A stretch of 64,000 nt of DNA, taken from an uncultured Planctomycetia bacterium (lineage in GTDB: Bacteria; Omnitrophota; Gorgyraeia; 2-02-FULL-51-18). Within the stretch, counting starts at the first letter, position 1. Each line of letters starts with the position of its first letter. The translations under genes were made by a program, and so were the position numbers. The notes under the pieces were generated by a model. That model was not told the origin of the DNA and searched no databases. It saw nothing but the letters and a program-made list of their open reading frames with translations. Of the stretch, positions 6,228 through 59,514 are shown piece after piece. The DNA is taken from contig CAYODQ010000002.1 in assembly GCA_964402785.1 (NCBI GenBank), forward strand, positions 5,763 through 69,762, written 5' to 3'.

Positions 6228-7304
6228 TTACTCCGCTTTGGGGTAAGAACCCAAGATCTTAAGAAACACGCAGTGGCGGCTCAGCACCGATAGAGCCTTT
6301 CGAACCTTGGCATCATCATGATGACCTTCCAGATCCACAAAGAAATAATAACTCCATACTTTCTTTTTGGACGGACGTGATTCGATCTTGGTCAAATTGA
6401 TCTTGGCTTTTTTGAACGGTGACAAAATATCATGCAAAGCGCCGGACTTGTCTTTGATCTCAAATAAAATAGAGGTCTTATCTTGCCGGGTAGGCCTCGC
6501 CTCACTGCGCGACACCACCAAGAAACGAGTGGTGTTGTTGGGGTTATCCTCGATGGATGAACCCAAGATCTTAAGGCCGTATTCATTGGCAGCTATCTGG
6601 GACGCGATACAAGCAATGCCTTTACGCTTGGGATCTTTGGCCACGATCTGCGCCGCTTCGGCCGTACTCGCCGTCTCCACGAGCTCTGCATTGCGAAGAT
6701 GAGACTCCAGCCACAAACGACACTGGCCAAACACCTGATCCTTTGAAAAAACCTGCTTGATATCCGGCACGACGGCCCCGGCGGACATGAGATAATGATG
6801 CACCGGCAAATAGATCTCGCCGAATATTTTAAGATCCGAAGCAATGAACATGTCCAGCGTATGATTGACGGCGCCTTCGGTCGAGTTTTCAACGGGCACC
6901 ACGCCATAGTCGCAGCGCTCCGCCTCAACATCCAAAAACACATCGGTGATACTGGCACAAGGAGCGTATTCGACGGATGATCCAAATTTTTTCTGCGCGG
7001 CCTGATGCGTGTACGTAACGGGCGGCCCGAGGTATGCGATCTTTACTTTTTTCTCAAGGCTGATCGAGAAAGACATGATCTCGCGATAGATAGCATCTAT
7101 GGCGCCGGGCGTCAAAAGGCCTTTGTTGAGCGCTTTGAGGCGCGTCAAAACTTCCTTCTCACGATGAGGCGCGTAAATGCTCTGGCGATCTTTGGCTTTT
7201 TCTTTGCCGATCTCAAGAGACGCGGCGGCTCGCTCGTTCAAAAGCTCGATGATCTTGGTGTCGATGCCGTCTATTTTTTTACGCAGATTCTGCAGGCTCA
7301 TCAC
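6228..7304 (-). CDS. pheA: bifunctional chorismate mutase / prephenate dehydratase (P-protein) with C-terminal ACT domain
   Basis: N-terminal chorismate-mutase-like LRKKIDGIDTKIIELLNERAAASLEIGKEK. A prephenate dehydratase core and ACT-like end (ILFEIKDKSGALHDIL) follow. Confidence 0.85.
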   Translation of the reverse strand: MMSLQNLRKKIDGIDTKIIELLNERAAASLEIGKEKAKDRQSIYAPHREKEVLTRLKALNKGLLTPGAIDAIYREIMSFSISLEKKVKIAYLGPPVTYTHQAAQKKFGSSVEYAPCASITDVFLDVEAERCDYGVVPVENSTEGAVNHTLDMFIASDLKIFGEIYLPVHHYLMSAGAVVPDIKQVFSKDQVFGQCRLWLESHLRNAELVETASTAEAAQIVAKDPKRKGIACIASQIAANEYGLKILGSSIEDNPNNTTRFLVVSRSEARPTRQDKTSILFEIKDKSGALHDILSPFKKAKINLTKIESRPSKKKVWSYYFFVDLEGHHDDAKVRKALSVLSRHCVFLKILGSYPKAE

Positions 7305-7926: not shown

Positions 7927-8665
7927 GATCTTGGGATCCCTCCACCGGTTGAATCATCTTTTCGTTGCGTGAAATTTCAATTTCTCCAAATTGTTTATCT
8001 TGCATGGCCAGCACTTCTTTTAAACGGATCAGCTCCAGGATAGCCAAAAAAATAGTGATCGCCTCTACTTTGGTGCGTGCCCGTTCGAAGATCTGGCTAA
8101 AATAGATCTTGGGGGTGCGAGCGAGTTCATGAAAGATCTCATGCACTTTTTCGGCCACGGTGTACTCATCCCGCACCACCTCGTGATACACTTCCTTGGG
8201 GATACTTTTCAGGACTTTGTTAAAAGCCTCCAAAAGCTCGAACAGCGTGACATCTGCGATCGGAATATCCGCTGGTGAGATCTCGGGCTCTACGCCAAAA
8301 CGCCCAAAGATACCGCTTTGGATCTCTTCTTGGGCCTTGAGACGCTCAGCGGCCTCTTTGAAAGCTTTGTATTGCAGAAGACGGCGCACAAGCTCCGCAC
8401 GAGGATCCTCTTCGTCAGTTTCAATGCCCTCCGGATCCGGCGGAAGCAGCATCTTGGATTTGATATGCATCAGTGTGGCCGCCATCACCAAAAACTCTCC
8501 GGCAATATCCAGATCCAACATCTCCATCAAATTCAAATACTCGAGATATTGCTCGGTGATACGCGTCATGGGGATATCTGAGATGCTGAGCTCTTCCTTG
8601 CGGATCAAATGCAAAAGAAGATCCAGAGGCCCTTCGAACATCTCTAACTTAACTTTATAACTCAC
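7919..8665 (-). CDS. scpA: segregation and condensation protein A (kleisin)
   Basis: LEMFEGPLDLLLHLIRKEEL N-terminus is typical of ScpA. Confidence 0.85.
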   Translation of the reverse strand: MSYKVKLEMFEGPLDLLLHLIRKEELSISDIPMTRITEQYLEYLNLMEMLDLDIAGEFLVMAATLMHIKSKMLLPPDPEGIETDEEDPRAELVRRLLQYKAFKEAAERLKAQEEIQSGIFGRFGVEPEISPADIPIADVTLFELLEAFNKVLKSIPKEVYHEVVRDEYTVAEKVHEIFHELARTPKIYFSQIFERARTKVEAITIFLAILELIRLKEVLAMQDKQFGEIEISRNEKMIQPVEGSQDHG

Positions 8666-22298: not shown

Positions 22299-23414
22299 TC
22301 AGACGCTGGATGCAGCCAGTGCTTGGATTTTGTAGCCCTTCTTGGTCATAGCGTCTGCAAACGCATTCCACCCACGCTGAGCATCTTGACGTGTGCAAGC
22401 AAAACCCATGTGTGCAAAACGCACCAGCTTGCCCTGCAACTCACCTTGTCCATCCGCCATCACAACATAATGTTCATCGCGCATGATCTTGATCACGTCG
22501 CCCGATGCCACACCCTCCGGCATCACGATCGCAGTGAGGCCGCTGGATGGGGCCTTGGCAAACAGCTTGAGGCCTGAAGCTTCGACCTGTTTGCGAACCC
22601 AAGCCGCCACATCCGCATGACGCTTCCAAACATTTTCCATGCCTTCATCCAGAAGCATTTGCATTGCCACTTCCATGCCTCGGATCAAACTCACGGCTGG
22701 CGTATAAGGCGTATCATTTTTCTTAAGCGTCTTGAGCGCATCGGCAAACGTAAAATAGTACTTGGGTAGATCGGACTTGGAAATAGCTGCCTGTGCACGC
22801 TCGCCTAGAGCAACATACGCCAGACCCGGAGGCAACATCAACCCCTTTTGGCTCCCGCACACGACCACATCCACTCCCCACTCATCCATCCGAAGCGGAT
22901 CACAAGCTAGACCGCTGATGGCATCCACAAACAACATGGTGCCTGATTTACGCGTAAGCTCCGCGATTTGTTGTACGGGATGCATCACAGCCGTGGAGGT
23001 TTCGCACAAAGCGATCAAAACAGCTTTGGCATTGGGGTGCTTCTTTAATGTCTCCTCGACTTTATGAATATCAAACGTCTCGCCATATGGCAGTGAGATC
23101 TCAACCAAATTCATGCCATAAATTTTTGCGATATCACGATAGCGCTCGCCCCATTTACCGGCATTGAGCGAGATCACCGTATCCCCCTTGGAAAGAAGGT
23201 TGGTGATGGTTCCCTCCATCGCTCCCGTACCAGAGGCAGCAAAATAAAGAACAGGGTGCTTTGTCGCAAACACCTTAGGCAACATGCCATTCACCCGCTC
23301 CAAAACAGCCTGAAACTCTTTGGTGCGATGGTGGATGATAGGGATCGCGGTCGCGTCTAAAATCTTCTTGGGCACATTGGTGGGCCCCGGAGTTAATAAC
23401 AAATAATCTTTCAT
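22299..23414 (-). CDS. class V (AGXT/SGAT-type) aminotransferase, probable phosphoserine aminotransferase
   Basis: LLTPGPTNVP N-terminus and SQKGLMLPPGLA PLP-lysine motif. Directly upstream of serA. Confidence 0.7.
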   Translation of the reverse strand: MKDYLLLTPGPTNVPKKILDATAIPIIHHRTKEFQAVLERVNGMLPKVFATKHPVLYFAASGTGAMEGTITNLLSKGDTVISLNAGKWGERYRDIAKIYGMNLVEISLPYGETFDIHKVEETLKKHPNAKAVLIALCETSTAVMHPVQQIAELTRKSGTMLFVDAISGLACDPLRMDEWGVDVVVCGSQKGLMLPPGLAYVALGERAQAAISKSDLPKYYFTFADALKTLKKNDTPYTPAVSLIRGMEVAMQMLLDEGMENVWKRHADVAAWVRKQVEASGLKLFAKAPSSGLTAIVMPEGVASGDVIKIMRDEHYVVMADGQGELQGKLVRFAHMGFACTRQDAQRGWNAFADAMTKKGYKIQALAASSV

Positions 23415-23423
23415 ATACCTATC

Positions 23424-31965: not shown

Positions 31966-33015
31966 TCATTTATGTTGGCCAGGCTGAGTCTTGATCAGAT
32001 CCGATTTACGCCGGCGAGGCTGCTGAGTCTCATTGGCAATGCGCTGCGAAAGCTCTTCTTGATTAGTGACGGCGACACCGATCTTACCGACCACGATACC
32101 GGCAGCACAATTTGAAATATGAGCTGCATCAATAATATTCGCTCCTCCGGCTAGCGCCAACGTCAAAGCGCTGATCACCGTATCCCCGGCACCAGACACG
32201 TCAAAAACTTCCTGAGCCACGGTTGGAATTTTCACAGTTTCCTTGCGCGGACGAAAGATTGCCATACCATTTTCTCCGCGTGTAATGATCAAGCTTTGGG
32301 AGCGAAGCTTTTTGAGCATAAGCTGCCCTGCTTTTTCAAGCGTGGCATCATCTTTGATCTTAAACCCAACAGCCGCACCCGCTTCATGGTGATTGGGTGT
32401 CAGAGTGGTAACGCCATTGTAGTAAGAAAAATGAGTCTCTTTTGGATCCACCGTGATCACCTTTTTGTGCTTCTTGGCGATACGCACTGCCTCACTCACG
32501 AGTTTTGGTACGATCACACCTTTGCCATAATCTTCGATGATGAGCGCATCCACTTCCGGCAATTTTTTGCGGATAAATTCTTGGATCTGATCCTGTATAG
32601 AATCCGCGATCGGCTTCACAAGCTCGCGGTCGATACGAACCACTTGCTGATGATGTGCGATCACGCGTGTTTTTTGAGTCGTGGGACGTGATTTATCGGC
32701 CACGATGCCATCACAATGCACACCTCTTTTTTGAAGCACGCTCCTTAAAACTTCGCCGCGCGAATCGTCACCAACCACACCCGCCAAATAAACTTGTCCA
32801 CCCAAAGTGCTGATGTTGTACGCCACATTGGATGCTCCTCCCGGCATAAAATTTTCAGAATTGACCCACACAACCGGCACGGGAGCTTCGGGCGAAATGC
32901 GAGAAACATTGCCCCAAATAAATTCATCCAAGATCAGATCGCCGACGACCAAAACCTTGGATTTGTTAAAATTGGAAATGATATGCTTCCAACGTGCTAA
33001 GTCATTATGTTCCAT
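31966..33015 (-). CDS. hldE: D-glycero-beta-D-manno-heptose-7-phosphate kinase (RfaE/HldE domain I only)
   Basis: [31 protein letters not shown] aligns closely with the E. coli HldE N-terminus ([31 protein letters not shown]). At 349 aa it covers the kinase domain only, with no adenylyltransferase domain. Confidence 0.8.
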   Translation of the reverse strand: [349 protein letters not shown]

Positions 33016-33073
33016 GCGGTAGCATTCCTAATATTCGGTTAAACTTGCAGGTTTAGTCCAGCAAAGATGATGA

Positions 33074-33102
33074 TTTTAGCATTGCGTAGGGAACACGTCA
33101 AC
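33074..33102 (-). promoter_or_regulatory. sigma70-type promoter upstream of hldE
   Basis: Minus strand reads TTGACG, a 17-nt spacer, then TAAAAT. The predicted TSS is ~50 nt upstream of the hldE start at 33015. Confidence 0.5.
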
Positions 33103-33140
33103 AAACCCCTCTCCCCAAGAATCCAAGCCTTAGATGAGAT

Positions 33141-33325
33141 AAGCGTGCAAGCCGACAAGGGACACTATCCTACAGACACGCCTGCCTGCCGGCAGGCAGG
33201 CTCCGGTGCCCCTGCGAGGCACCTCGCTCTTCTTGCCCCCTCGCCCATGTTTAAAATAGAGCTATGTTCCGTGCGGCTCGGGGGTCGCGGAGGTCTTACG
33301 GATAGTATCCCTTGTCGGCTTGAGA
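33141..33325. repeat. ~180-bp element with ~22-bp terminal inverted repeats and an internal perfect 20-nt palindrome (MITE-like or structured RNA)
   Basis: Left TIR caagccgacaagggacactatcc matches right TIR ggatagtatcccttgtcggcttg (one mismatch). Inside is cctgcctgccggcaggcagg (33181-33200) and a ggtgcc...ggcacc stem. A partial copy gcctgcctgcctgccggc sits at 33596-33612. Confidence 0.4.
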
Positions 33326-33638
33326 AGCCATTCTCACACGAAGGCTGTATCCATGACTCGTTTCTGCAGTATATGAAAGTAATTCATCCAGAAGAGCGAG
33401 CGGTGTCTTAGGGTTAAGCCGGCAGCGCATTTCGATTTTATTCGTTCCCGGCCGTTTGGATGCGCTTATGGTTTTGTTGTAAGTCGTTTGGAGACGGCAC
33501 GAGCCCTGGTTTATACATTATGCGAGCTGGAAATCCACCCGACGCGGTGCCTCTAATATAGGCAGTCCGCCACCGCGTCTTGGATTTTGTCCGAGCCTGC
33601 CTGCCTGCCGGCTTTACATCTGAGAGGAAGAAATGGGT

Positions 33639-34463
33639 TTATTTTTTGGATTGAGATTTAATAACGCCATTAATAGGGTCGAAGGGCGTTTTGAGCATGC
33701 TCCACTCGCGGATACGCTTTTCGTCGGCGGATAAATAGATCCAAACTCTTCCCCGGCTATACAAAACACCCTTCAAACTTGTCCTGGGCTCAACGAGAAT
33801 GGTGTCCACACTCCCCCGACCTTTCAACTCTTTCGATTCTCTCTTTAGCACCTGTATCTCCAAGTCATGGTCTTTTTCTTCACTGGAAACAACGGTGTGC
33901 ACCGCTTTGCCTACTTGAAGATCTTGCCTGCGCACCCAGAAAAAAGCCGATATGACATCGTGCACAAATCCGCCGATCTCAAACTCTTTTTTTTCGCCGT
34001 TCTTAAGCGATTCGTAATAGCCCTTTTTATTAGATGGATCAAAAACCGTCTTTTCGTCCGCTCGGTACCGCCCCTCACTTAGTTTTTTTTGGAATTCCAG
34101 CGGATACAGATCGTCAACCGCAATAAAGCTATGCAGCTCATCTTGGACCGGGTATATCGTCGACAACACTTCGTTGGTCCTTGCGATCGCGACCACATGG
34201 TAAGCTTCTCGCCCAAGATGTTGGATCTTTTCCTTCACCCACAACTCTCCGTAACCCACGGGGACGCCCATCCAAGAAACTTCGTACAACAAATGCTCGC
34301 CCAACTCCATACGAGCATTCGGCTTTGACAGGGGGGGTAATTTCTTCGGTGTTTTTGCTGCAAAATTATTCTGCGCGATCGCTGGCATTGAACCGCACAG
34401 GATCGTCATCAATAAAACCAAAATCAAATATTTAACGTTGGTAAGTTGCAGATTTTTTTTCAT
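33639..34463 (-). CDS. secreted DUF3108-family protein (unknown function) at the start of the LPS-core cluster
   Basis: Signal peptide MKKNLQLTNVKYLILVLLMTILCGSMPAIA. YEVSWMGVPVGYGELW is a DUF3108-like motif. No homolog of known function recognised. Confidence 0.5.
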   Translation of the reverse strand: MKKNLQLTNVKYLILVLLMTILCGSMPAIAQNNFAAKTPKKLPPLSKPNARMELGEHLLYEVSWMGVPVGYGELWVKEKIQHLGREAYHVVAIARTNEVLSTIYPVQDELHSFIAVDDLYPLEFQKKLSEGRYRADEKTVFDPSNKKGYYESLKNGEKKEFEIGGFVHDVISAFFWVRRQDLQVGKAVHTVVSSEEKDHDLEIQVLKRESKELKGRGSVDTILVEPRTSLKGVLYSRGRVWIYLSADEKRIREWSMLKTPFDPINGVIKSQSKK

Positions 34464-36435
34464 GCTGTCTAGTCAGGATTGTCGCCAAGCTCTGGTACAC
34501 CTCTTCCACCCGGATCGCTTTTAGGCATTCAAAATCGATCGTGCATGCATGAGCCAAACAGACCACACATCCAATATCTTTATGCAAAACGCGGTGCGAC
34601 GCACCCAGCGGTTGCCAGCGGCGAGCGCCAAGCCCGGCTTGATTGCGTCCAAAAATACTGACAACCGGCGTACCAACAGCTGCGGCCACATGCACCGGGC
34701 CCGAATCATTTGAAACTAGAGCATCGCATACAGATAAGAACGCTGTCAGTTCATTTAAATTTTGACGGCCCGTCCAGTCCTGTACCCTCTCATCAAAACC
34801 CTTGGAAAGATAGGCTCCCAGCGAAACCTCATCCTCGCCACCAATAATCGCAACGCGGTGCGAATGGAACGCCAGGATACTTTCGATCAAGCGGCGGTAA
34901 TTTTCTTTGGGCCATCGCTTTGAAGGGCAGCTGGCGCCGGCGTGAATCGCGATCACCCCTTCTCGCTTAGCCAAATCCACTCGGGTCTCCGGAAAAAGCA
35001 GCTTATCCGGCATTTGAGTTGGGCGCGGCACACCAAACGCCTCGACCAAGTGCAAAGCATACTCAGATTCATGCTCCAAGCCCAGATGTCTTTTGTCAGG
35101 CATCGCGTGAGTGAGCAAAAAAGATAGGTTATTTTGATATCCGATCCGATATGGAATAGCTGATAAAAATGGGATCAAATAGGAACGTATCCCCGGATGC
35201 ATCACAAATGCTGCGTCAAACGATCGTCTTCTTATTTCTCGAATAAACCGGCTATAACCCCATGGAAACGTATGCGCTCCGCCCTTTTTGTAATCATAAA
35301 CCAGGACTTCATCGATCCAAGGATGCTCCCGCAAAAGATCCTGCGTGTAAGGCCGCGTCATGACCGTGATATGCGCATCGGGATGCTGTTGACGAAGTGC
35401 ATAGATAGATGGCAGCGTCAGCACCAGATCTCCAACACGATCCAATCGCATCACCAAAAACCTCAACCCCTGGCCTCTCAATCGATCCTCCAGGATCTGA
35501 GACGCTTTGTGATAAACAGTTTCTACGGATAAGTTGCTGAGGCACTCATGGCCATAGCGACATTGAGCTTTTTCGCATGGGGAACAAAAGATCTTGAGAG
35601 ATAAAGAAGCGCTGCCTTTTGTCCTGGGGCCGTACTTTGCCGGGTCCGTGGGCCCAAATAATGCCAGCACCGGAACTTTGAGCGCATCCGCGATATGAAG
35701 TGGCGCACTATCATTGGTGATGACGAGCTTTGCACGACGGACCAGACTTACTAATTCCAAGAAAGTCGTCTCGCCGCAAACATTTAAAGCCGCTTGCTTC
35801 ATGGATGAGCGAACACGTTCGGCGTCTTTTGCATCAGCCTTATCCCCCACCAATACGATCTGAAATCCTTTTTCATGGGCAAGCCGATCCAGAAGCTGAG
35901 CGTAATGAACTGCTGGCCATTTTTTAATATCGCTCTTGGAGCCTACGGCGGCAATGATCGTGGGCTTGTCTCTATCCAGCATTGGACGAGTAGAATCATT
36001 CGGTGATCTCCGCTCCAACCATCTTTGCTCCACCGGAAAAAGAGAAACAAGTCCTTTCAAAGAAGCCAGGTGTTTTTCACCGCGATGAGCGCCTTTGGAT
36101 CGAGTAATATAAGAATTACGATAACGTGCTCCTGAAAGCAAGCCGATCAAAGAACGCCGAAGATCGATCACAAGATCATAGCGCTCGTTGCGGATCGACT
36201 GAATAAACGCCCATTTCTGCTGAAAAGGTGCTCGTTTATTGAACACCCGAAACTGATCGATGCGCGGATCCCCTTCAAAAACGATCTTCCCGGATTCTCC
36301 CGCGATCACATCCAATTTCGCTTCAGGAAATGACAATTTCAATTGCTCAAACACCGGAAGCGTCAACACCACATCTCCTAAATTTGAAAGTGTGACGACC
36401 AAGATCTTTTGGATCGAGCTTTTGTCGGTGATCAT
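34432..36435 (-). CDS. tandem family-9 glycosyltransferase (two heptosyltransferase domains fused)
   Basis: Two complete GT9 units, each with an N-terminal LSNLGDVVLTLP / RVGDLVLTLP motif and a C-terminal NDSAPLHIA / NDSGPVHVAAA motif. 667 aa. Confidence 0.75.
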   Translation of the reverse strand: MITDKSSIQKILVVTLSNLGDVVLTLPVFEQLKLSFPEAKLDVIAGESGKIVFEGDPRIDQFRVFNKRAPFQQKWAFIQSIRNERYDLVIDLRRSLIGLLSGARYRNSYITRSKGAHRGEKHLASLKGLVSLFPVEQRWLERRSPNDSTRPMLDRDKPTIIAAVGSKSDIKKWPAVHYAQLLDRLAHEKGFQIVLVGDKADAKDAERVRSSMKQAALNVCGETTFLELVSLVRRAKLVITNDSAPLHIADALKVPVLALFGPTDPAKYGPRTKGSASLSLKIFCSPCEKAQCRYGHECLSNLSVETVYHKASQILEDRLRGQGLRFLVMRLDRVGDLVLTLPSIYALRQQHPDAHITVMTRPYTQDLLREHPWIDEVLVYDYKKGGAHTFPWGYSRFIREIRRRSFDAAFVMHPGIRSYLIPFLSAIPYRIGYQNNLSFLLTHAMPDKRHLGLEHESEYALHLVEAFGVPRPTQMPDKLLFPETRVDLAKREGVIAIHAGASCPSKRWPKENYRRLIESILAFHSHRVAIIGGEDEVSLGAYLSKGFDERVQDWTGRQNLNELTAFLSVCDALVSNDSGPVHVAAAVGTPVVSIFGRNQAGLGARRWQPLGASHRVLHKDIGCVVCLAHACTIDFECLKAIRVEEVYQSLATILTRQHEKKSATYQR

Positions 36436-37475: not shown

Positions 37476-38275
37476 GAATCCATGGAAGGGCTGACACTCT
37501 GCTGGCCACCCTTATAAGACACACGCTTTTTTCCTAGGTGATAAATACCGGAGACTTTGGCCCAAAAACTAAACAGCCCGTTCGAATTATTGACCTTGAT
37601 GCGATGCAGACCATAAAAATCATGAGGCACTTTTCCGTAATTGGTCGTCACAGCACCTTCATATCCACTTGACTGAACCAAAGCCCTCACTTCAGGAGTG
37701 GTGCCTCCTGCGGGAAAACTGAAAAGCGTGACAGGATGACCCAAAATACTTTCAAGTTTCACCTTTGATGCGGTCAACTCGTTCTTTATTTGCTCTTCGG
37801 AGCATTTAGGCAAAAAAGCGTGGGATAATGTATGACTGCCAATGGTGACGCCGGATTCATCCATGATCTGAAGCTGCTTTGATGTCAGCCACCCCGCCTT
37901 GCCGATATTGTCCGTGATCATAAAGATAGTGGCTGGTAAACCTAGCTTTTTTAGGATAGGAAATGCATTGTTATAATTATCCACCGTCCCATCGTCAAAC
38001 GTAATACACACGGTCTTAGGCTTGATCTTTCTGCCTGCCTTTAATTCCTCCACCACTTTAGACAAGGGCTCGACATGATAACGGTGTGTTTTTAAGAACT
38101 GCATCTGTCGCTCGAAAGATTCGGGTGTGACCGTTGGTGACTTGATCTTGGGGTTGGCGTAATCGACAATGTGATACATGAGAATAGGGGTCTCAAAAAA
38201 ATAAGCGCGGGCAGCTTGGAAAAGGATCCAAGCGCAAATTAAAACAAGAACGAGGCCTTTGTACCGCCGGGTCAA
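37472..38275 (-). CDS. polysaccharide deacetylase (NodB homology domain), membrane-anchored
   Basis: N-terminal TM helix. ILMYHIV and CITFDDGTVDNY NodB motifs. Confidence 0.7.
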   Translation of the reverse strand: MTRRYKGLVLVLICAWILFQAARAYFFETPILMYHIVDYANPKIKSPTVTPESFERQMQFLKTHRYHVEPLSKVVEELKAGRKIKPKTVCITFDDGTVDNYNNAFPILKKLGLPATIFMITDNIGKAGWLTSKQLQIMDESGVTIGSHTLSHAFLPKCSEEQIKNELTASKVKLESILGHPVTLFSFPAGGTTPEVRALVQSSGYEGAVTTNYGKVPHDFYGLHRIKVNNSNGLFSFWAKVSGIYHLGKKRVSYKGGQQSVSPSMDS

Positions 38276-40395
38276 ACCAGGCTCTCCGATAACGATACGC
38301 CGGATGGACGCTTGTTATTGATGAGATGAAGGACGGCATCCAACACTTCCTGCACACTGATCTTCTTCATACACGGATGGCCGATCGGACAGCTTCTGAG
38401 ATAACAAGGGCTGCACTGAAGCTCTTTCCAAAACACCTGATGATGTGAGGGCGGCATCAAGTGTCTTTTAGGATCAGTGGGCCCGAAAATAGCCACAAGC
38501 GGTATATCCAAGCTGGATGCGATATGCATTGGAGCCGAATCAGAGCTGATAAACACCTGACAACGCCTGATCAGCGCCGTGAGCTCTGTGATCGTCGTTT
38601 TTCCGACAGCATTCACCGGCTTGTTGCGTGTTTGCGATAAAAGCTCGTCCGCCAGCGCCTGCTCTTCGTGAGAACCCGTGATCACCACGCGAATATTTCT
38701 CCTCGCCAACTCATCGCAAAGCTTGGCGTAATTTTCCACAGGCCAAAGCTTGGTCGGCCATCGCGGAGACGATCCCGGATTGATCCCGACCAGGATCTGG
38801 CTGGGAGAAACCCACTGGGACTCCAAAAATTTTCCGATCTTCTCATCCTCACTCTTTTCCGTCCATATCTCAAGCTGCTTTGAGGATGGCTCGACTCCGA
38901 TAAGCTTCAGGACCTGAAATTGATGATCGATAGGAGAAATTGTTGAAAAATCGCCCTCTGCGCGCCGGTTAAGAAAAAAAGACCATTTGCGATTTTTGTG
39001 CCCCGCGCGCACCCGGGCACCGCAGAAAAATGAAAAGAAATGACTCAGTCGATTGTTTTGAAGATCGATAGCAATATCAAAATCCTCGCCAGCCAACAAC
39101 CGGGCCATCCGAAGCGCCGATCGCCATTTGTGCTTCATACTCTCTTCATAGACCATCACATCATCCACATACGGACAATTACGAATGATCTTTCTCGATT
39201 TTCTTCCAACAAGGACCGTGATCCAGGCTTTGGGATATTTTTCACGCAACGCCCTAAGAGAAGGAATACTGAGTATCACATCCCCAAGCGCACTCAACTT
39301 GATGACCAATATTTTTTTTCGGGAAAGCGCTTCTTCGTATACCTTGAGCTTCTTCTCAAACATCATGGGAAGATCATACTCAGCCTCGACTTTGGCGCGC
39401 AAAGATTGGGCTAGGTTTTTGGCCAGAGATTCGTCTTTGAGTATCCTCAACACGGCGTCCGCCAATTCGCGCGGATCCTCGGGACCCACCAATAATCCGT
39501 CTTTTTCGTGCTCAATGATATCCACCAAGCCACCCATGCGCGTCGCCACCACAGGGACACCGCAAGCGCCTGCCTCGATCACGACACGCCCAAAAGCCTC
39601 TTCGCCCACCGACGGCGCCACCAAAACCGACATCTTACTCAAAAGCTCTGGAATATTATATCGGGTCCCCATGAACTGAACTGCCTGCGAAAGCCCAAGG
39701 TTACGCGTGAGCATCAAAAGCTCTTCTTTGTATTGTGGTTTGGGCGCATCTCCAATGATCTGGATCTTGATATGCGGATAAACTCGCACGACCCGTGCCA
39801 TGGCTTTCAAAAAAAGTGGGTGTCCCTTGATCGGTGTCAGCCTCCCCACCAAACCGATCACCACTTCCTTTGTTGCTGCCAGTTTTTCAGCGTCGCGCAA
39901 TTTAAACTCTTCCAAATTGACACCACGCGGGATCATGCGGATCTTTTCGTGAGGTACACCAAAGTCATCTCGCATGCGCTTCCCAATAATATGGCTAGCG
40001 ACAATCACGTATTTGCCCCAACCCATCGGACGGCTTAAAAGGTGTTTACTATAAAAACCGTGGCTCGTTGTCACGAACGGAACCTGAGTGTAGCGGCTCA
40101 CAAAATAAGCGATCAGGGCGGGAACGCGGCTGCGGGCATGGATCACATCGATACCCTCCATGCGAACGATTTTGATCAATGCTTTTACGGAGGCGATGAT
40201 AGAAAAAACTGATTTTTTATGCACCGGAAGCGCATAATGCGTGACACCCGCTGACACGAGCTCGCCAACCAGAGGGCCCCCAGCTGAAACCACCACAGCC
40301 TTATAGCCTTTACGTTTTAAATACTTCGCCAGATCGACCGACCCGCGTTCAACCCCGCCTGATTTGAGCTCTGGCAATATCTGAAGCACGACCAT
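38272..40395 (-). CDS. GT4 glycosyltransferase fused to a C-terminal GT9 heptosyltransferase domain
   Basis: N-terminal ~370 aa carries the GT4 EX7E motif (EEAFGRVVIEAGACGVPVVATRMGG). C-terminal ~330 aa is a GT9 domain (ILVIKLSALGDVILSIP ... SSDSAPMHIASS). Confidence 0.75.
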   Translation of the reverse strand: MVVLQILPELKSGGVERGSVDLAKYLKRKGYKAVVVSAGGPLVGELVSAGVTHYALPVHKKSVFSIIASVKALIKIVRMEGIDVIHARSRVPALIAYFVSRYTQVPFVTTSHGFYSKHLLSRPMGWGKYVIVASHIIGKRMRDDFGVPHEKIRMIPRGVNLEEFKLRDAEKLAATKEVVIGLVGRLTPIKGHPLFLKAMARVVRVYPHIKIQIIGDAPKPQYKEELLMLTRNLGLSQAVQFMGTRYNIPELLSKMSVLVAPSVGEEAFGRVVIEAGACGVPVVATRMGGLVDIIEHEKDGLLVGPEDPRELADAVLRILKDESLAKNLAQSLRAKVEAEYDLPMMFEKKLKVYEEALSRKKILVIKLSALGDVILSIPSLRALREKYPKAWITVLVGRKSRKIIRNCPYVDDVMVYEESMKHKWRSALRMARLLAGEDFDIAIDLQNNRLSHFFSFFCGARVRAGHKNRKWSFFLNRRAEGDFSTISPIDHQFQVLKLIGVEPSSKQLEIWTEKSEDEKIGKFLESQWVSPSQILVGINPGSSPRWPTKLWPVENYAKLCDELARRNIRVVITGSHEEQALADELLSQTRNKPVNAVGKTTITELTALIRRCQVFISSDSAPMHIASSLDIPLVAIFGPTDPKRHLMPPSHHQVFWKELQCSPCYLRSCPIGHPCMKKISVQEVLDAVLHLINNKRPSGVSLSESLV

Positions 40396-40397
40396 AT

Positions 40398-42365
40398 CTA
40401 CATGATCCTTTGCGCCACGTTATGCAATACATCTTCTTGACGCCGCCGATACTCCCAGTCTGGGGCGCCAGACCGCTGAGACAACGACATCATCTGATCT
40501 AAAAATTGCTCGGAACGACCCCGCACGATCTTCCCTTCGCGCTCCAATCGATCCAAATATTCTTCGTATTTGGGTTTCGTGGATGTCCCTGCCTGCCAAG
40601 GTTCTATCACCAACACAAGTTTTCCGGCCATCACCGCTTCCGAGATCATCGACATGGACTCACCTGTTACGATCACCCAATCCGACAATCCCAATATAGC
40701 ACTCACGCCGCCCTGACGATTGGCTTCATTGGCGATCAAAAGATATGGACACACCCGCTTATCCAGAAAAAAATGCTTCATCACCTGCTCGGCCCAGGCT
40801 GGCGTTCGGCGCGAACTGGTCGCGATCACCTCAACACCCTGCCTTAGACTGAACTGATGCAGCATTTGCATCCACTTTTCAAACAGCGCCAGCTGAAACT
40901 GGATTTTAGTGGTATCTCCGCCAACAAGCAATCCAATTTTCTTCGCGTGCCCGCCCAAAGACAGCTCCGCGCGTAGTTTTTGCGATTCCCTTGAGAGATC
41001 TTCTTGTCGCATGGCAGAAAGCGCTCCATCCGTCACGAATACACGGTCGCTGGACATGGCTTTATCGTGTTTCGGAAGAATGATAGCATCGAACAGCTCG
41101 TGCGACGTGCTGGGCTTCATGATCAAAACGGATTTTGCTTTATTTTCTTTTTTGATCCAAATATTCACATCTTGAAGCGACGAGCCGCAAGAAATAACAA
41201 TATCCGCATACGCACGCCTCATCTGGCGATAGCAATCAGGTTTCAATGCAGCCTTGAGCCACAGAGTCCTAAATGGGATGTGTCCCCGACAAAGAATGCT
41301 CAGCGCGCGCAAGCCCCCTCTAAAAAACTCGTTCCTGAATTGGATCTGAAGCTCTTCACAAAAAAGCCTGTCGGCTGTTCCTTGCGGCTCACGCATGCGT
41401 CGCATCGCATCCACAACCGCCATGGATTGATGCACATGCCCGGCTCGCCCATCACTCAACACCAGGATCTTTTTGTCGGGCGACGATTTCCAGCGCCGAT
41501 GACCCCAAAGCCACTGATGAGGAGATCTTCGGATCTTCTCTTCAAGGGTATCTGCAAATTGCTGCAAAATAAAACTCTCGGCGTCATCCGGCGCTGCATC
41601 TGCCGGAGGCATCTTAAGGGCATCGCCCACTTCGATGAAGTGCTTCTCGCCTTTTTGCCTAAAAATAAAAACGGGGAAAATGGGTGCGCCGGTTCTCATG
41701 GAAAAAGCGGCAACGCCTGGAGGGGTTGATGAGAGTCTGTCAAAAAGATGAACGAATCGCCCTTTCTTTCCGCCATCCTGGTCGCTCAAAATGGCCACGA
41801 TCTTGCCTTCGTGCAAGGATTTTAAGATCTGGCGAACCATGATCCCTTTGTAAATGACCTGGCTGCCTTTGGATTCACGCAACTTGTTCAAATAGGCATC
41901 CGATCGTGGGTGCTTTTGCAATCTCGCCAAAGCCACCAGCGGCATCCCCATCAAGCTGCCGGCAATATTCAGAAGCTCCCAACTGCCAAAATGGCCGGTC
42001 AAAAAAATGACGCCTTTTTTTTGCCTCAAAGCTTCTTCGTATTTCTCGCGGCCTTCGATCGTAAAATGTTCTTGGATATATTTAAGATCCATATCCGGGA
42101 CCCTGAGCAGATCCACGGCATTCATGGCTAAGTTCTGAAAAGATCGCTCGGCTATTCTTTTGAGTTCTTTGGGTGAATAGGCTTCACCCAGAGCCATCTT
42201 GAGATTGCGATAAGCAATGGCGCCGCGCTTGGAAAAAATAAACACAAGCGTCCCCACCCCGCGCGCAAAAGCGAGCGAAAAACTAAAAGGAAGCCAGCGG
42301 ACTAAAGCTCGCCCAGCTTGGACGACTTTAAGAATTAAGGCATCTTCTAATAAAGTCTTCTTCAT
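40398..42365 (-). CDS. lipid A late acyltransferase (LpxL/HtrB-like LPLAT) fused to an ELM1/DUF1022-like domain
   Basis: N-terminal ~300 aa has the LGHFGSWELL acyltransferase motif and a PIFPVFI region. C-terminal ~350 aa starts ILVLSDGRAGHVHQSM, matching the conserved start of bacterial ELM1/DUF1022 proteins. Confidence 0.65.
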   Translation of the reverse strand: MKKTLLEDALILKVVQAGRALVRWLPFSFSLAFARGVGTLVFIFSKRGAIAYRNLKMALGEAYSPKELKRIAERSFQNLAMNAVDLLRVPDMDLKYIQEHFTIEGREKYEEALRQKKGVIFLTGHFGSWELLNIAGSLMGMPLVALARLQKHPRSDAYLNKLRESKGSQVIYKGIMVRQILKSLHEGKIVAILSDQDGGKKGRFVHLFDRLSSTPPGVAAFSMRTGAPIFPVFIFRQKGEKHFIEVGDALKMPPADAAPDDAESFILQQFADTLEEKIRRSPHQWLWGHRRWKSSPDKKILVLSDGRAGHVHQSMAVVDAMRRMREPQGTADRLFCEELQIQFRNEFFRGGLRALSILCRGHIPFRTLWLKAALKPDCYRQMRRAYADIVISCGSSLQDVNIWIKKENKAKSVLIMKPSTSHELFDAIILPKHDKAMSSDRVFVTDGALSAMRQEDLSRESQKLRAELSLGGHAKKIGLLVGGDTTKIQFQLALFEKWMQMLHQFSLRQGVEVIATSSRRTPAWAEQVMKHFFLDKRVCPYLLIANEANRQGGVSAILGLSDWVIVTGESMSMISEAVMAGKLVLVIEPWQAGTSTKPKYEEYLDRLEREGKIVRGRSEQFLDQMMSLSQRSGAPDWEYRRRQEDVLHNVAQRIM

Positions 42366-45501: not shown

Positions 45502-47769
45502 CTAAATATCGGAGAGATGTTTATCGTCTTCCGCGGGCCCTTGATCGTCAGCTTTGGGCGCTGCATCGGATCCCGGCTCAGCCGAATTCGCTGAGGGAAG
45601 TTTGTTGACGATATAGTTGCAATTGGGATAAGCCGTACACCCAAAAAAGGGCCGTCCGCGGCCTGACTTGGCGCGGCGCGCAACAAGCTTGCCCGTTTTG
45701 CATTGCGGGCAAACCACGTCGGTCGATATTGATTTTGCATTCTTGCACTCAGGCCACGCTGAGCAGCTCATGAAGCGGCCGCGGCGGCCCCATTTGATCA
45801 CCATGGGCTTGCCACATTTGTCACAGATCTCATCAGTGGGCTCAGCCACTTTCTTGACCGTTTGGATCTGGTCTTTGGCGGCCTCCATCTGCCCTTTAAA
45901 GACATCGTAAAAAGTGCGTACCACCTGCACCCAATTACAATGCCCTTCTTCGATCTCGTCCAACTGCTCTTCAAGTCCTGCGGTGAACTGAAAATCCATC
46001 ACCTTTTCAAAATGTTTCACCAAAATATCCACCACCAACATCCCAAGCTCCGTCGGCACCAAACTCCCGCCTTCTCTGCGGATATAATCGCGCCCCGTAA
46101 GCGTGGCGATGATCGGAGCATACGTCGAAGGGCGGCCGATCCCCTGTTCTTCCAGAGCCTTGACCAACGATGCATCCGTGAATCGCGCTGGCGGTTTTGT
46201 AAAATGCTGATGGTTTTGCAGATCCAAAAGGATCAAATTCTCCCCCACCTCAAGAGCAGGAAGCGGATTATCCTCATCTTCGCTGCGATCTGTGACGGCC
46301 AAAAAGCCAGGGAACTCCACACGGCTACCAGTGGAGCGAAAAATAAACTCGCCCGCTGCAATATCTGCCGTATCTTGCGCGATCAGCGCCGGCACCATCT
46401 GACTAGCCACCGTTTGCTCCCAGATCAGTGAATACAGCTTTTGTTGATCAGGCGTTAAGAAGGATTCGATCGACTTGGGATCTCTAGAAATAGCGCTGGG
46501 CCTAATAGCCTCATGTGCTTCCTGAGCTGCTTTTTTTGACTTATAAACATTGGGAGTACCCGGCAAATAATCCTTACCGAATTGTTTTGCAATGTAGTCA
46601 CGCGTCTCCTTGAGGGCTCCCTCCGAAATTCGCACTGAATCCGTACGCATGTAGGTGATTAAACCCACGCTGCCCTCGTCGGCAATCTCCACGCCTTCAT
46701 AAAGGGTTTGAGCCACCTTCATCGTTTTGGAGGCAGGGAAACGATATCGGTTATAAGCTGCCTGTTGTAATTTGCTGGTGGTGAACGGCGCCGACGGATT
46801 GCGCTTTTTCTTGAGATGCTTGACCTCCTTGACGATGAAGGGAGCATTTTTGGATGCCGCCAAAGCCTTATCGGCCACCCCTTTATCGGCCATCTCTATC
46901 TTTTTATCACCGATCTTTTCGAGATTGGCTTTGAAAGTACGCGTATCACCGCTCTTTTTTTTGAGATCCGCTTCGATGGACCAGTATTCTTCGGGTACAA
47001 ATGCCCGGATCTTTCTTTCCTGGTCGACGATGAGACGAAGCGCTACCGATTGCACGCGGCCGGCTGACAATCCACGGCCCACTTTCTGCCACAAAAGCGG
47101 GCTTAAACTATAACCCACGAGACGATCCAGCACGCGCCTTGCTTGCTGGGCGCCAATGAGATCCATGTTCAGATCATGCGGTTTTTTAAACGCCTCTAAA
47201 ATAGCGTCCTTCGTGATCTCATTGAACACCACTCGCCATACGGTTTTTCCTTTGCCGAGGGCTTCTTTCAAATGCCAGCTGATCGCTTCACCCTCACGGT
47301 CAGGGTCACAGGCCAGGTATATTTCTTTTTTAGATTTGGCTTTTTTCTTAAGCTCGCTGAGCGTTTTCTTCCTGTCTTTGACCACGATATACTTGGGCTC
47401 AAAATTATTCTCGATGTCGATGCCCATTTTACTTTTGGGAAGATCGATCACATGACCCATCGAAGCCGTCACTTCAAATCCGGAGCCTAGATATTTCTGG
47501 ATGGTCTTGCATTTGGCAGGAGACTCCACGATCACAAGCGCATGCGCTGGCGCTCCACCACCCACAAAATGCACAATCTCAATCTGGTCTCCCTCGCGCA
47601 CCGCCACATCCGAAAGACAGTCACGCGATACGATCTCAAGATTGTGTTCGACCACGACCTTTTCTTTCACGATCTTGAGCGCCTCTAAAAGCTGCAACAA
47701 ATTAATTCCTGAAGAAAATTCCCTCTTCTCTCCATTCAAAATAATATGAACCATAGATGCTGTGCTCAC
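45502..47769 (-). CDS. topA: DNA topoisomerase I with an in-frame N-terminal ThiS-like ubiquitin-fold extension
   Basis: TOPRIM start LVIVESPAKCKTIQKYLG and a catalytic Tyr region (SEGSVGLITYMRTDS). C-terminal Zn-ribbon repeats (CDKCGKPM..., CPQCKTGK...). The ORF starts at GTG 47769, overlapping the dprA TGA (GTGA). Confidence 0.85.
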   Translation of the reverse strand: MSTASMVHIILNGEKREFSSGINLLQLLEALKIVKEKVVVEHNLEIVSRDCLSDVAVREGDQIEIVHFVGGGAPAHALVIVESPAKCKTIQKYLGSGFEVTASMGHVIDLPKSKMGIDIENNFEPKYIVVKDRKKTLSELKKKAKSKKEIYLACDPDREGEAISWHLKEALGKGKTVWRVVFNEITKDAILEAFKKPHDLNMDLIGAQQARRVLDRLVGYSLSPLLWQKVGRGLSAGRVQSVALRLIVDQERKIRAFVPEEYWSIEADLKKKSGDTRTFKANLEKIGDKKIEMADKGVADKALAASKNAPFIVKEVKHLKKKRNPSAPFTTSKLQQAAYNRYRFPASKTMKVAQTLYEGVEIADEGSVGLITYMRTDSVRISEGALKETRDYIAKQFGKDYLPGTPNVYKSKKAAQEAHEAIRPSAISRDPKSIESFLTPDQQKLYSLIWEQTVASQMVPALIAQDTADIAAGEFIFRSTGSRVEFPGFLAVTDRSEDEDNPLPALEVGENLILLDLQNHQHFTKPPARFTDASLVKALEEQGIGRPSTYAPIIATLTGRDYIRREGGSLVPTELGMLVVDILVKHFEKVMDFQFTAGLEEQLDEIEEGHCNWVQVVRTFYDVFKGQMEAAKDQIQTVKKVAEPTDEICDKCGKPMVIKWGRRGRFMSCSAWPECKNAKSISTDVVCPQCKTGKLVARRAKSGRGRPFFGCTAYPNCNYIVNKLPSANSAEPGSDAAPKADDQGPAEDDKHLSDI
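47557..47754 (-). CDS. thiS: ThiS-like sulfur-carrier (beta-grasp) domain, no stop codon before the topA TOPRIM domain
   Basis: MVHIILNGEKREFSSGINLLQLLEALKIVKEKVVVEHNLEIVSRDCLSDVAVREGDQIEIVHFVGGG. The C-terminal IEIVHFVGGG matches the B. subtilis ThiS end exactly. Codons GGT GGT GGA are followed directly by GCG CCA GCG CAT GCG CTT GTG ATC GTG GAG. Confidence 0.6.
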
Positions 47770-59038: not shown

Positions 59039-59514
59039 AGAGATCTCCTGATAGCCTCCACCAATTCAAGCCTTGTTTTGCGACCCGGGCTTATTTTTAG
59101 TTTCCGGGTATTTGGCGATACATGCCCGAACGAAAACCAGATCGTCTGCAAAGGCAGGCATCCTCTGCCCCGCTCTGGCCACTCCACGAATGTCACGGCC
59201 TTCGACGAAAAACACTCTTGCGCAAAATCTCGGTCAGCCCCTTCTACTTTTTTTAGGCGATACCAGTCCAAATGGAAAACCTTTTCTCGACCTTGATACT
59301 CATGGATCACTACAAATGTGGGGCTAGCTACCTCCGTCGACACCGGGACTTTGAGCCCCTGGCACACACCTTTCACCCAGGTCGTTTTTCCGGCTCCCAG
59401 CGCACCTTGAAGCGCAACAACATCGCCTGCCTTCAAAAAATTTCCTACTTTTTTCCCAAAAGCCATTGTTTCTTTGGCTGACGAAAGCGTGATCTCTAAT
59501 TTATTTTTTTTCAT
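59035..59514 (-). CDS. tsaE: tRNA t6A37 biosynthesis ATPase TsaE (YjeE)
   Basis: LQGALGAGKTTWVKGV P-loop. Probable start at MKKNKLEI (59514); the longer ORF overlaps thiL. Confidence 0.8.
   Translation of the reverse strand: MKKNKLEITLSSAKETMAFGKKVGNFLKAGDVVALQGALGAGKTTWVKGVCQGLKVPVSTEVASPTFVVIHEYQGREKVFHLDWYRLKKVEGADRDFAQECFSSKAVTFVEWPERGRGCLPLQTIWFSFGHVSPNTRKLKISPGRKTRLELVEAIRRSL

Follow-up and report, generated by a model that had tools for sequence, protein, structure and literature searches.

The only long non-coding stretch in the 64-kb DNA segment of an Omnitrophota bacterium analyzed here (positions 1-64000; hereafter, the window) harbors two giant imperfect hairpins, denoted D1 and D2, which lie between two groups of LPS biosynthesis genes and retain their pairing in the related lineages compared. 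Judging from the sequence comparisons, this gap probably represents a so far undescribed segment of structured RNA between two LPS operons. With regard to its role, the leading interpretation, held with somewhat less than even confidence, is that the gap is a clade-restricted element in which the two hairpins act in cis as the transcribed tail of the upstream operon.

Genomic setting of the gap

The gap spans positions 33016-33638 (623 nt), between the stop of the DUF3108 gene (33639; gene at 33639-34463, minus strand) and the start of an hldE-like gene coding for a PfkB kinase of 349 aa (33015; gene at 31966-33015, minus strand). Read on the minus strand, it contains D1, a linker, D2, the hldE promoter and the hldE 5' UTR; the homologous gap in the relative L002 is ~619 nt long. 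All other gene junctions in the window are 155 nt or shorter, which confirms the claim of an earlier note on this DNA that the 620 bp upstream of hldE are an unusually long non-coding region. Two further candidate gaps, at 22399-23423 and 59039-59500, were rejected; both are genes missed by the crude gene map.

The gap is surrounded by an LPS gene supercluster that is encoded on a single strand, with lipid A genes and genes for core glycosyltransferases on the upstream side (lpxK, waaA, a lipid A acyltransferase, a GT4-GT9 fusion, a deacetylase, GT9, GT9-GT9 and, last, DUF3108), and the hldE kinase, kdsB, pyrG, kdsA, kdsD, kdsC, lptC/A, lptB and hpf downstream. The hldE-like gene matches the PfkB kinase family only, and because the adenylyltransferase domain is absent, its predicted product is HldA-like rather than the bifunctional HldE. 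The hldE-kdsB-pyrG-kdsA-kdsD-kdsC-lpt operon has its own conserved promoter.

All of the ~60 mapped genes of the window lie on the minus strand and mostly overlap or are separated by a few bases, and the GC skew of the plus strand is negative across the whole profiled part. Among the products encoded upstream of the gap are a 667-aa protein (34432-36435) with two separate regions of similarity to the GT9 heptosyltransferase family (products of ~670 aa, also matching GT9, are encoded directly upstream of DUF3108 in the relatives L006-L009), the GT4-GT9 fusion (38272-40395), a 655-aa fusion protein (40398-42365) that joins a lipid A acyltransferase to a Mito_fiss_Elm1-family domain, and topoisomerase I (45502-47769) with an N-terminal match to the ThiS-family (ubiquitin-like) domain (residues 9-72, E = 1.4e-11), an unusual fusion.

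No conserved ORF was found in the gap. A 114-aa ORF on the plus strand was rejected as a gene, having neither a Pfam match nor a counterpart in L002. The peptide LQQN(H/Y)KR..AGNE, common to the window and L002, was likewise rejected as coding; an in-frame reading of the alignment row for L005 is interrupted by a stop codon.

Directly after D2 lies the promoter of the hldE operon (33073-33101, minus strand), with TTGACG and TAAAAT separated by 17 nt and a TG-extended -10 element. This sigma70-like promoter, already recognized in the earlier note, reads from 33101 to 33073, is kept in L002, L022 and L023 and thus conserved in four lineages, and has a similar counterpart in the more distant L037; the call is supported by this conservation. 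The 5' UTR that follows (33016-33072, minus strand) is highly conserved as well, with 86% identity to L002 over 70 nt. An intrinsic terminator, that is, a G+C-rich hairpin with a U tract, was not found on the minus (gene) strand of 33016-33638, and consensus scans of this strand detected no promoter preceding D1 or D2, nor, on either strand, a dedicated promoter or terminator of the element. TG-extended promoters and canonical terminators occur in other gaps of the window, the latter, for example, at 13803-13782 and 20648-20626. No convincing match to the RfaH ops/JUMPStart motif was seen by eye. Because D1 begins ~10 nt past the DUF3108 stop, with no promoter or terminator between them, D1 and D2 would be transcribed as the 3' tail of the upstream operon.

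Two large hairpins in a narrow clade

The window was placed in Omnitrophota by its DUF3108 protein, for which no exact record was found, and its closest relatives are uncultured Omnitrophota represented by short metagenome contigs. The DUF3108 protein of L001 is 98% identical to that of the window; L002 and L003 (75% each), L004 (77%) and L005 (76%) are separate lineages, and in L022 and L023, the hldE protein is 91% identical to the window's. A homologous gap of ~620 nt is present at the same site in all these contigs, complete in L002 (619 nt) and partial in L001, L003, L004, L005, L022 and L023. The element is absent in the more distant relatives examined (DUF3108 identity of ~52-56%), namely, L007 and L008, where other genes follow DUF3108, and the P0079 contig (JGI 3300078620). 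In the P0079 contig, an opposite-strand histidine kinase gene is located between DUF3108 and hldE, which is the site of the element in the window clade.

In seven relatives (L001, L003, L004, L005, L006, L022 and L023), the contig breaks off in the hairpin region or at most 15 nt away from it. Long palindromes may have hampered assembly at low coverage, and this may account for the rarity of the element in databases. In L008, a scaffold gap (a run of N, at 6521-6630) lies inside a large gene with repeated ENGKLKMEN-like segments, downstream of DUF3108.

None of the 4227 models of Rfam 15 matched any part of the window at the gathering score, and none matched positions 32900-33750 even at E<=10; thus, no family in this collection explains the gap. 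The same search of L002-L008 gave no relevant match, ARAGORN predicted no tRNA or tmRNA, and no string convincingly resembling the P4 region of RNase P was seen by eye. The failure of the earlier note to recognize RNase P RNA, tmRNA or SRP RNA in the gap is borne out by the Rfam and ARAGORN results. Searches of genome collections (in which the window lineage is not represented) and metagenome collections with the core motif GAGTCAYGNATAYAGCCTTC returned only an unrelated coding gene of Chitinophagaceae and chance sites, as checked with nhmmer; scans of viral collections with the D2 tip motif and the promoter motif produced 0 matches, and BLAST searches for distant similarity in plasmid and phage collections also had no match. 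Nothing relevant was found in the literature on Omnitrophica non-coding RNA and DUF3108. The element is an orphan, known from a few lineages of one clade and belonging to no known family. The 20-nt motif GAGTCACGCATACAGCCTTC belongs to a conserved, alignable stretch found in many contigs of Chitinophagaceae and other Bacteroidota (L010-L012, L016-L020, L025, L027-L033 and L036), which was taken to be a putative protein-coding gene unrelated to the element.

The repeats, palindrome, stems and promoter listed in the earlier note are all present in the sequence, most of them as parts of the two hairpins. D2 (33126-33346, minus strand; ~220-280 nt) has as its core the segment that had been described as bounded by ~22-bp terminal inverted repeats (TIRs), and extends it by ~25 nt of further pairing on each side. 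The inverted repeat, 33148-33170 and 33300-33322, is complementary at 22 of 23 positions, can be extended to 30 nt at 87%, and does not recur in the window, where chance alone would give 0 matches. On the minus strand, the right repeat (33300-33322) is the 5' strand and the left one (33148-33170) the 3' strand of the long D2 helix, which measures 23 bp, including one G-U, in the window; in 8 of the 26 helix pairs, both sides have changed among the three lineages. This helix is enclosed by an outer stem (AGCCUU.../...AAGGCU) and carries a three-branch tip. The tip hairpin (33205-33223, minus strand), the GGTGCC/GGCACC stem of the earlier note, combines an invariant loop, UCGCAGG, with a covarying stem, which is GGUGCC/GGCACC in the window, AGGUC/GACCU in L002 and GAGGCC/GGCCUC in L023, and its flanks, GCGAG and CGGAGC, are conserved. 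The linker and the 5' base of D2 include the block CGAGUCAYGNAUAYAGCCUUC (33340-33360, minus strand), which is conserved in the window, L002 and L005.

In L037 (hldE identity of 80%), the contig holds 184 nt upstream of hldE and ends there; within it (positions 1-110), a ~57-nt hairpin, AGCCCCUC...GGAGGGGCU, ends 14 nt upstream of a similar hldE promoter, TTGACT-17-TTAAAAT. The base of this hairpin (AGCCUUC...GGAGGCU) resembles that of D2, so that D2 may have grown out of a smaller, older hairpin.

D1 is best seen in the relatives, where its length is ~165-265 nt. The L002 version is a ~265-nt rod that includes perfect helices of 26 and 20 bp, and the L005 version a ~165-nt rod with a perfect 22-bp helix; the two share an internal loop, CCCUUNCCC opposite GGCCGGGAAYG. 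In the window, D1 (33413-33617, minus strand) is degraded: in the window lineage, L001 included, CAGGCAGGCAGG stands in place of ~70 nt of the 5' arm that L002 and L004 possess. The basal helix GUAAAGCCGGCAG/CUGCCGGCUUAAC remains, and so does the tip hairpin (33531-33587, minus strand), to which belongs the 9-bp stem GACGCGGTG/CACCGCGTC; the earlier note had identified this stem correctly but placed it ~10 nt away from its actual position, 33541-33549 / 33571-33579. The tip stems covary with respect to L002, with AUCCA/UGGAU changed to GUCC/GGAC and GACGCGGUG/CACCGCGUC to UUGGCGCCG/CGGCGCCAA. The orphan 3' arm, ACUUACAACAAAACCAUAAGCGC...GGCCGGGAACGAA (33428-33487, minus strand), is still conserved, at 82% identity to L002 over 60 nt, although its pairing partner is deleted.

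Two short tracts distinguish the window lineage. The perfect palindrome GCCTGCCTGCCGGCAGGCAGGC (33180-33201) is a 20-nt insertion that adds an extra hairpin to the D2 multiloop; it is absent from L002, L022 and L023 and specific to the window lineage, which L001 shares. The partial repeat reported in the earlier note is the GCCTGCCTGCCTGCCGGC tract (33595-33612), a lineage-specific (GCCT)n/(CAGG)n run that replaces the 5' arm of D1. Because this arm is lost, only D2 is intact in the window lineage, with the 20-nt palindromic hairpin added. The two (GCCT)n/(CAGG)n tracts share 14-20 nt, are both specific to this lineage, and look as if a single copying event (a template switch) had produced them. 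Pairing between the two, across 389 nt, would also be possible.

Maintenance of the pairing and its possible causes

On both strands, the gap folds far more stably than shuffled sequence, with z = -6.1 for the minus strand and -5.5 for the plus strand. For D2, compared among the window, L002 and L023, 15 of the 49 consensus pairs have changed on both sides and 95.9% of the cells are paired; 0 of 500 shuffles reached the observed values, and sliding the partner by 1-3 columns left 0-4 such pairs. For D1, in the comparison of L002 with L005, 10 of the 50 pairs have changed on both sides and none is broken, against 0 in the slid controls. These counts come from three lineages for D2 and two for D1.

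The sequence is also constrained relative to synonymous sites. In the single clean comparison, that of L002 with L023, D2 is 92% identical, compared with 59% for the four-fold degenerate sites in the neighboring hldE. When the window is compared with L002, four-fold sites are 31-43% identical, near saturation, whereas ungapped blocks of 60-70 nt in the gap are 82-86% identical. The gapped identity of the whole gap (70%) barely exceeds the shuffled baseline of 62-66%, and therefore, the argument for constraint relies on the ungapped blocks and on the L002-L023 pair.

The earlier note proposed that the segment could be a MITE-like non-autonomous transposable element. The 22/23 complementarity of the repeats has the appearance of such an element, the absence from the site in more distant relatives implies a gain at some time, and relatives' contigs often end within the element. 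However, the search for target-site duplications turned up none (the flanks are ...AAGCGTG / AGAAGCC...), and the 'TIRs' are not the ends of an element because the pairing symmetry runs past them, with the flanks carrying on the hairpin for ~25 nt. BLAST, nhmmer and a covariance model of the D2 core revealed no further copy in the 64-kb window, the only weak covariance-model match (8292-8372, E = 0.05) lying within a gene. No gene for a transposase, RAYT or TnpB is present in the window, where an XerC/D-like protein is the only recombinase and the rest of the genes are housekeeping; neither did the plasmid, phage and viral collections yield any related sequence, nor did the core motif have a related match in the genome and metagenome collections. 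The element occupies the same site in all close relatives, and the substitutions in the arms are compensatory rather than decaying. Compensated changes in the arms argue against a MITE because transposase-binding ends need conserved sequence, not compensated pairing. The MITE reading was accordingly not borne out, and a MITE or another non-autonomous mobile element, or else an old fossil of one fixed before the lineages split, appears very improbable. More generally, what looks like a clean 'TIR-bounded' segment may turn out to be the central part of a conserved hairpin and not a transposon.

A more serious rival is a DNA-level quasi-palindrome, the arms of which are kept complementary by template switching or arm-to-arm conversion, without an RNA function and with perhaps a role in the DNA, such as forming a cruciform, or none at all. 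Perfect stems and compensatory changes of several bases are a documented outcome of template switching (PMC8794818). The D1 helices, which are purely Watson-Crick, with 10 two-sided and 0 one-sided changes, fit such copying of the arms, and new perfect palindromes have appeared in single lineages, namely, the 20-nt palindrome of the window and the 20-bp P2 helix of L002, which is absent in L005; the two window-specific (GCCT)n tracts share their 14-20 nt as if copied. The mismatches in the arms are balanced overall, with G-U (32) not in excess of A-C (29), and the preferred folding strand differs between the domains, being the gene strand for D2 and the opposite strand for D1. Arm copying alone, however, leaves unexplained the conserved unpaired loops and linker blocks as well as the ~five-fold slower change of D2 relative to four-fold sites, and D2 contains conserved G-U pairs on the gene strand. 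Because of these unexplained features, replication template switching is ranked as a contributing process and the main rival but not as the whole story, and a quasi-palindrome devoid of RNA function is considered unlikely.

The same observations weigh on the favored reading, a cis-acting RNA tail of the upstream operon. The strand signals are mixed between D1 and D2, the G-U to A-C balance is unusual for a one-strand RNA under selection, and the absence of one-sided changes in D1 fits arm copying at the DNA level too. Furthermore, the window lineage manages without the D1 5' arm, the element is missing from more distant relatives, only two or three independent lineages are available for each domain, and 540 nt is a lot of structure for a simple barrier. 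If the cis-acting reading is correct, the hairpins would serve as a processing, stability or insulation element of the RNA: the continuous helices of at least 20 bp (23 bp in D2 of the window, 26 and 20 bp in D1 of L002, 22 bp in L005 and ~27 bp in L023) would be substrates for an RNase III-type, double-strand-specific RNase or barriers to 3'-exonucleases, such that the upstream message would be uncoupled from the hldE operon and its stability set by the hairpins.

The earlier note also offered a structured ncRNA as an alternative to a transposon. Its structural part stands, given the covariation, the constraint above synonymous sites and the lack of an Rfam match; expression, the minus-strand assignment and an independent transcript are putative. 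A stand-alone, trans-acting ncRNA of a new class, that is, a rod-like molecule of ~250-540 nt that would be derived from the DUF3108 3' UTR or from an unrecognized promoter of its own and would bind a protein or RNA, could account for the unpaired motifs conserved inside covarying helices (the UCGCAGG loop with GCGAG and CGGAGC, CCCUUNCCC / GGCCGGGAAYG, and CGAGUCAYGNAUAYAGCCUUC), and both the constraint above synonymous sites and the absence of an Rfam match are in its favor. Nevertheless, this possibility is rated slightly below the quasi-palindrome, considering that no promoter or terminator of its own was found on either strand, that the clade is very narrow, that the tips vary greatly and the window has lost one arm, and that most folded functional RNAs do not have near-perfect helices of 20-26 bp. 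A bolder version, which we also regard as rather unlikely, is that the rods represent a novel class of bacterial ncRNA, large and double-stranded almost throughout and limited to one Omnitrophota clade, that would be cut from the transcript of the LPS supercluster and would serve a separate function, such as binding a dsRNA-binding protein or controlling the stoichiometry of the LPS operons, with the arms kept paired by template switching and selection together.

The finding is a lead rather than a discovery and rests on a handful of low-coverage metagenome contigs. If real as RNA, the element would stand out as a cis element of unusual size, double-stranded over nearly its whole length, in the LPS biosynthesis cluster of a barely studied phylum, and would provide a natural case for separating selection for pairing from replication template switching in long hairpins.

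Comparison with known hairpin elements and structured RNAs

With MITEs, the element shares a terminal inverted repeat of ~23-30 nt around a non-coding core of ~115 nt, but it differs from them in the lack of a target-site duplication, of other copies in the window and of a partner transposase, and in the covariation of its arms. Large size, strong predicted structure, covariation and occurrence in uncultured or little-studied lineages are features in common with OLE, ROOL, GOLLD, HEARO, raiA and 6S RNA. The element, however, matches no Rfam model, its helices are far longer and more perfect, and the central bubble of 6S RNA is missing from the branched D2.

Another parallel is provided by the RNase III-type processing sites. 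RNase III acts on substrates with ~20 bp or more of continuous helix, and its known intercistronic sites, such as those in phage T7 early mRNA and the stems of rRNA operons, are single hairpins of ~40-60 nt. Continuous helices of at least 20 bp between coding units of one transcript would be common to these sites and to the element, whereas here there are two branched rods of 200-280 nt as putative cleavage substrates.

The REP/BIME, REPIN, ERIC and Correia elements are long imperfect hairpins located between same-strand genes that are thought to affect mRNA stability or processing, and some of them carry or adjoin promoters. They form multi-copy families of 35-155 nt that are mobilized by RAYT or IS transposases. 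Arm co-evolution is described for REPINs (PMC3116915). The present element resembles them as a long imperfect hairpin structure between genes on one strand, but it is ~540 nt in size, is found only once in the window, at one orthologous site, and has no transposase or RAYT nearby. Among all these systems, the element appears closest in kind to the intercistronic hairpin elements, compared with which it is far larger and occurs once in the window.
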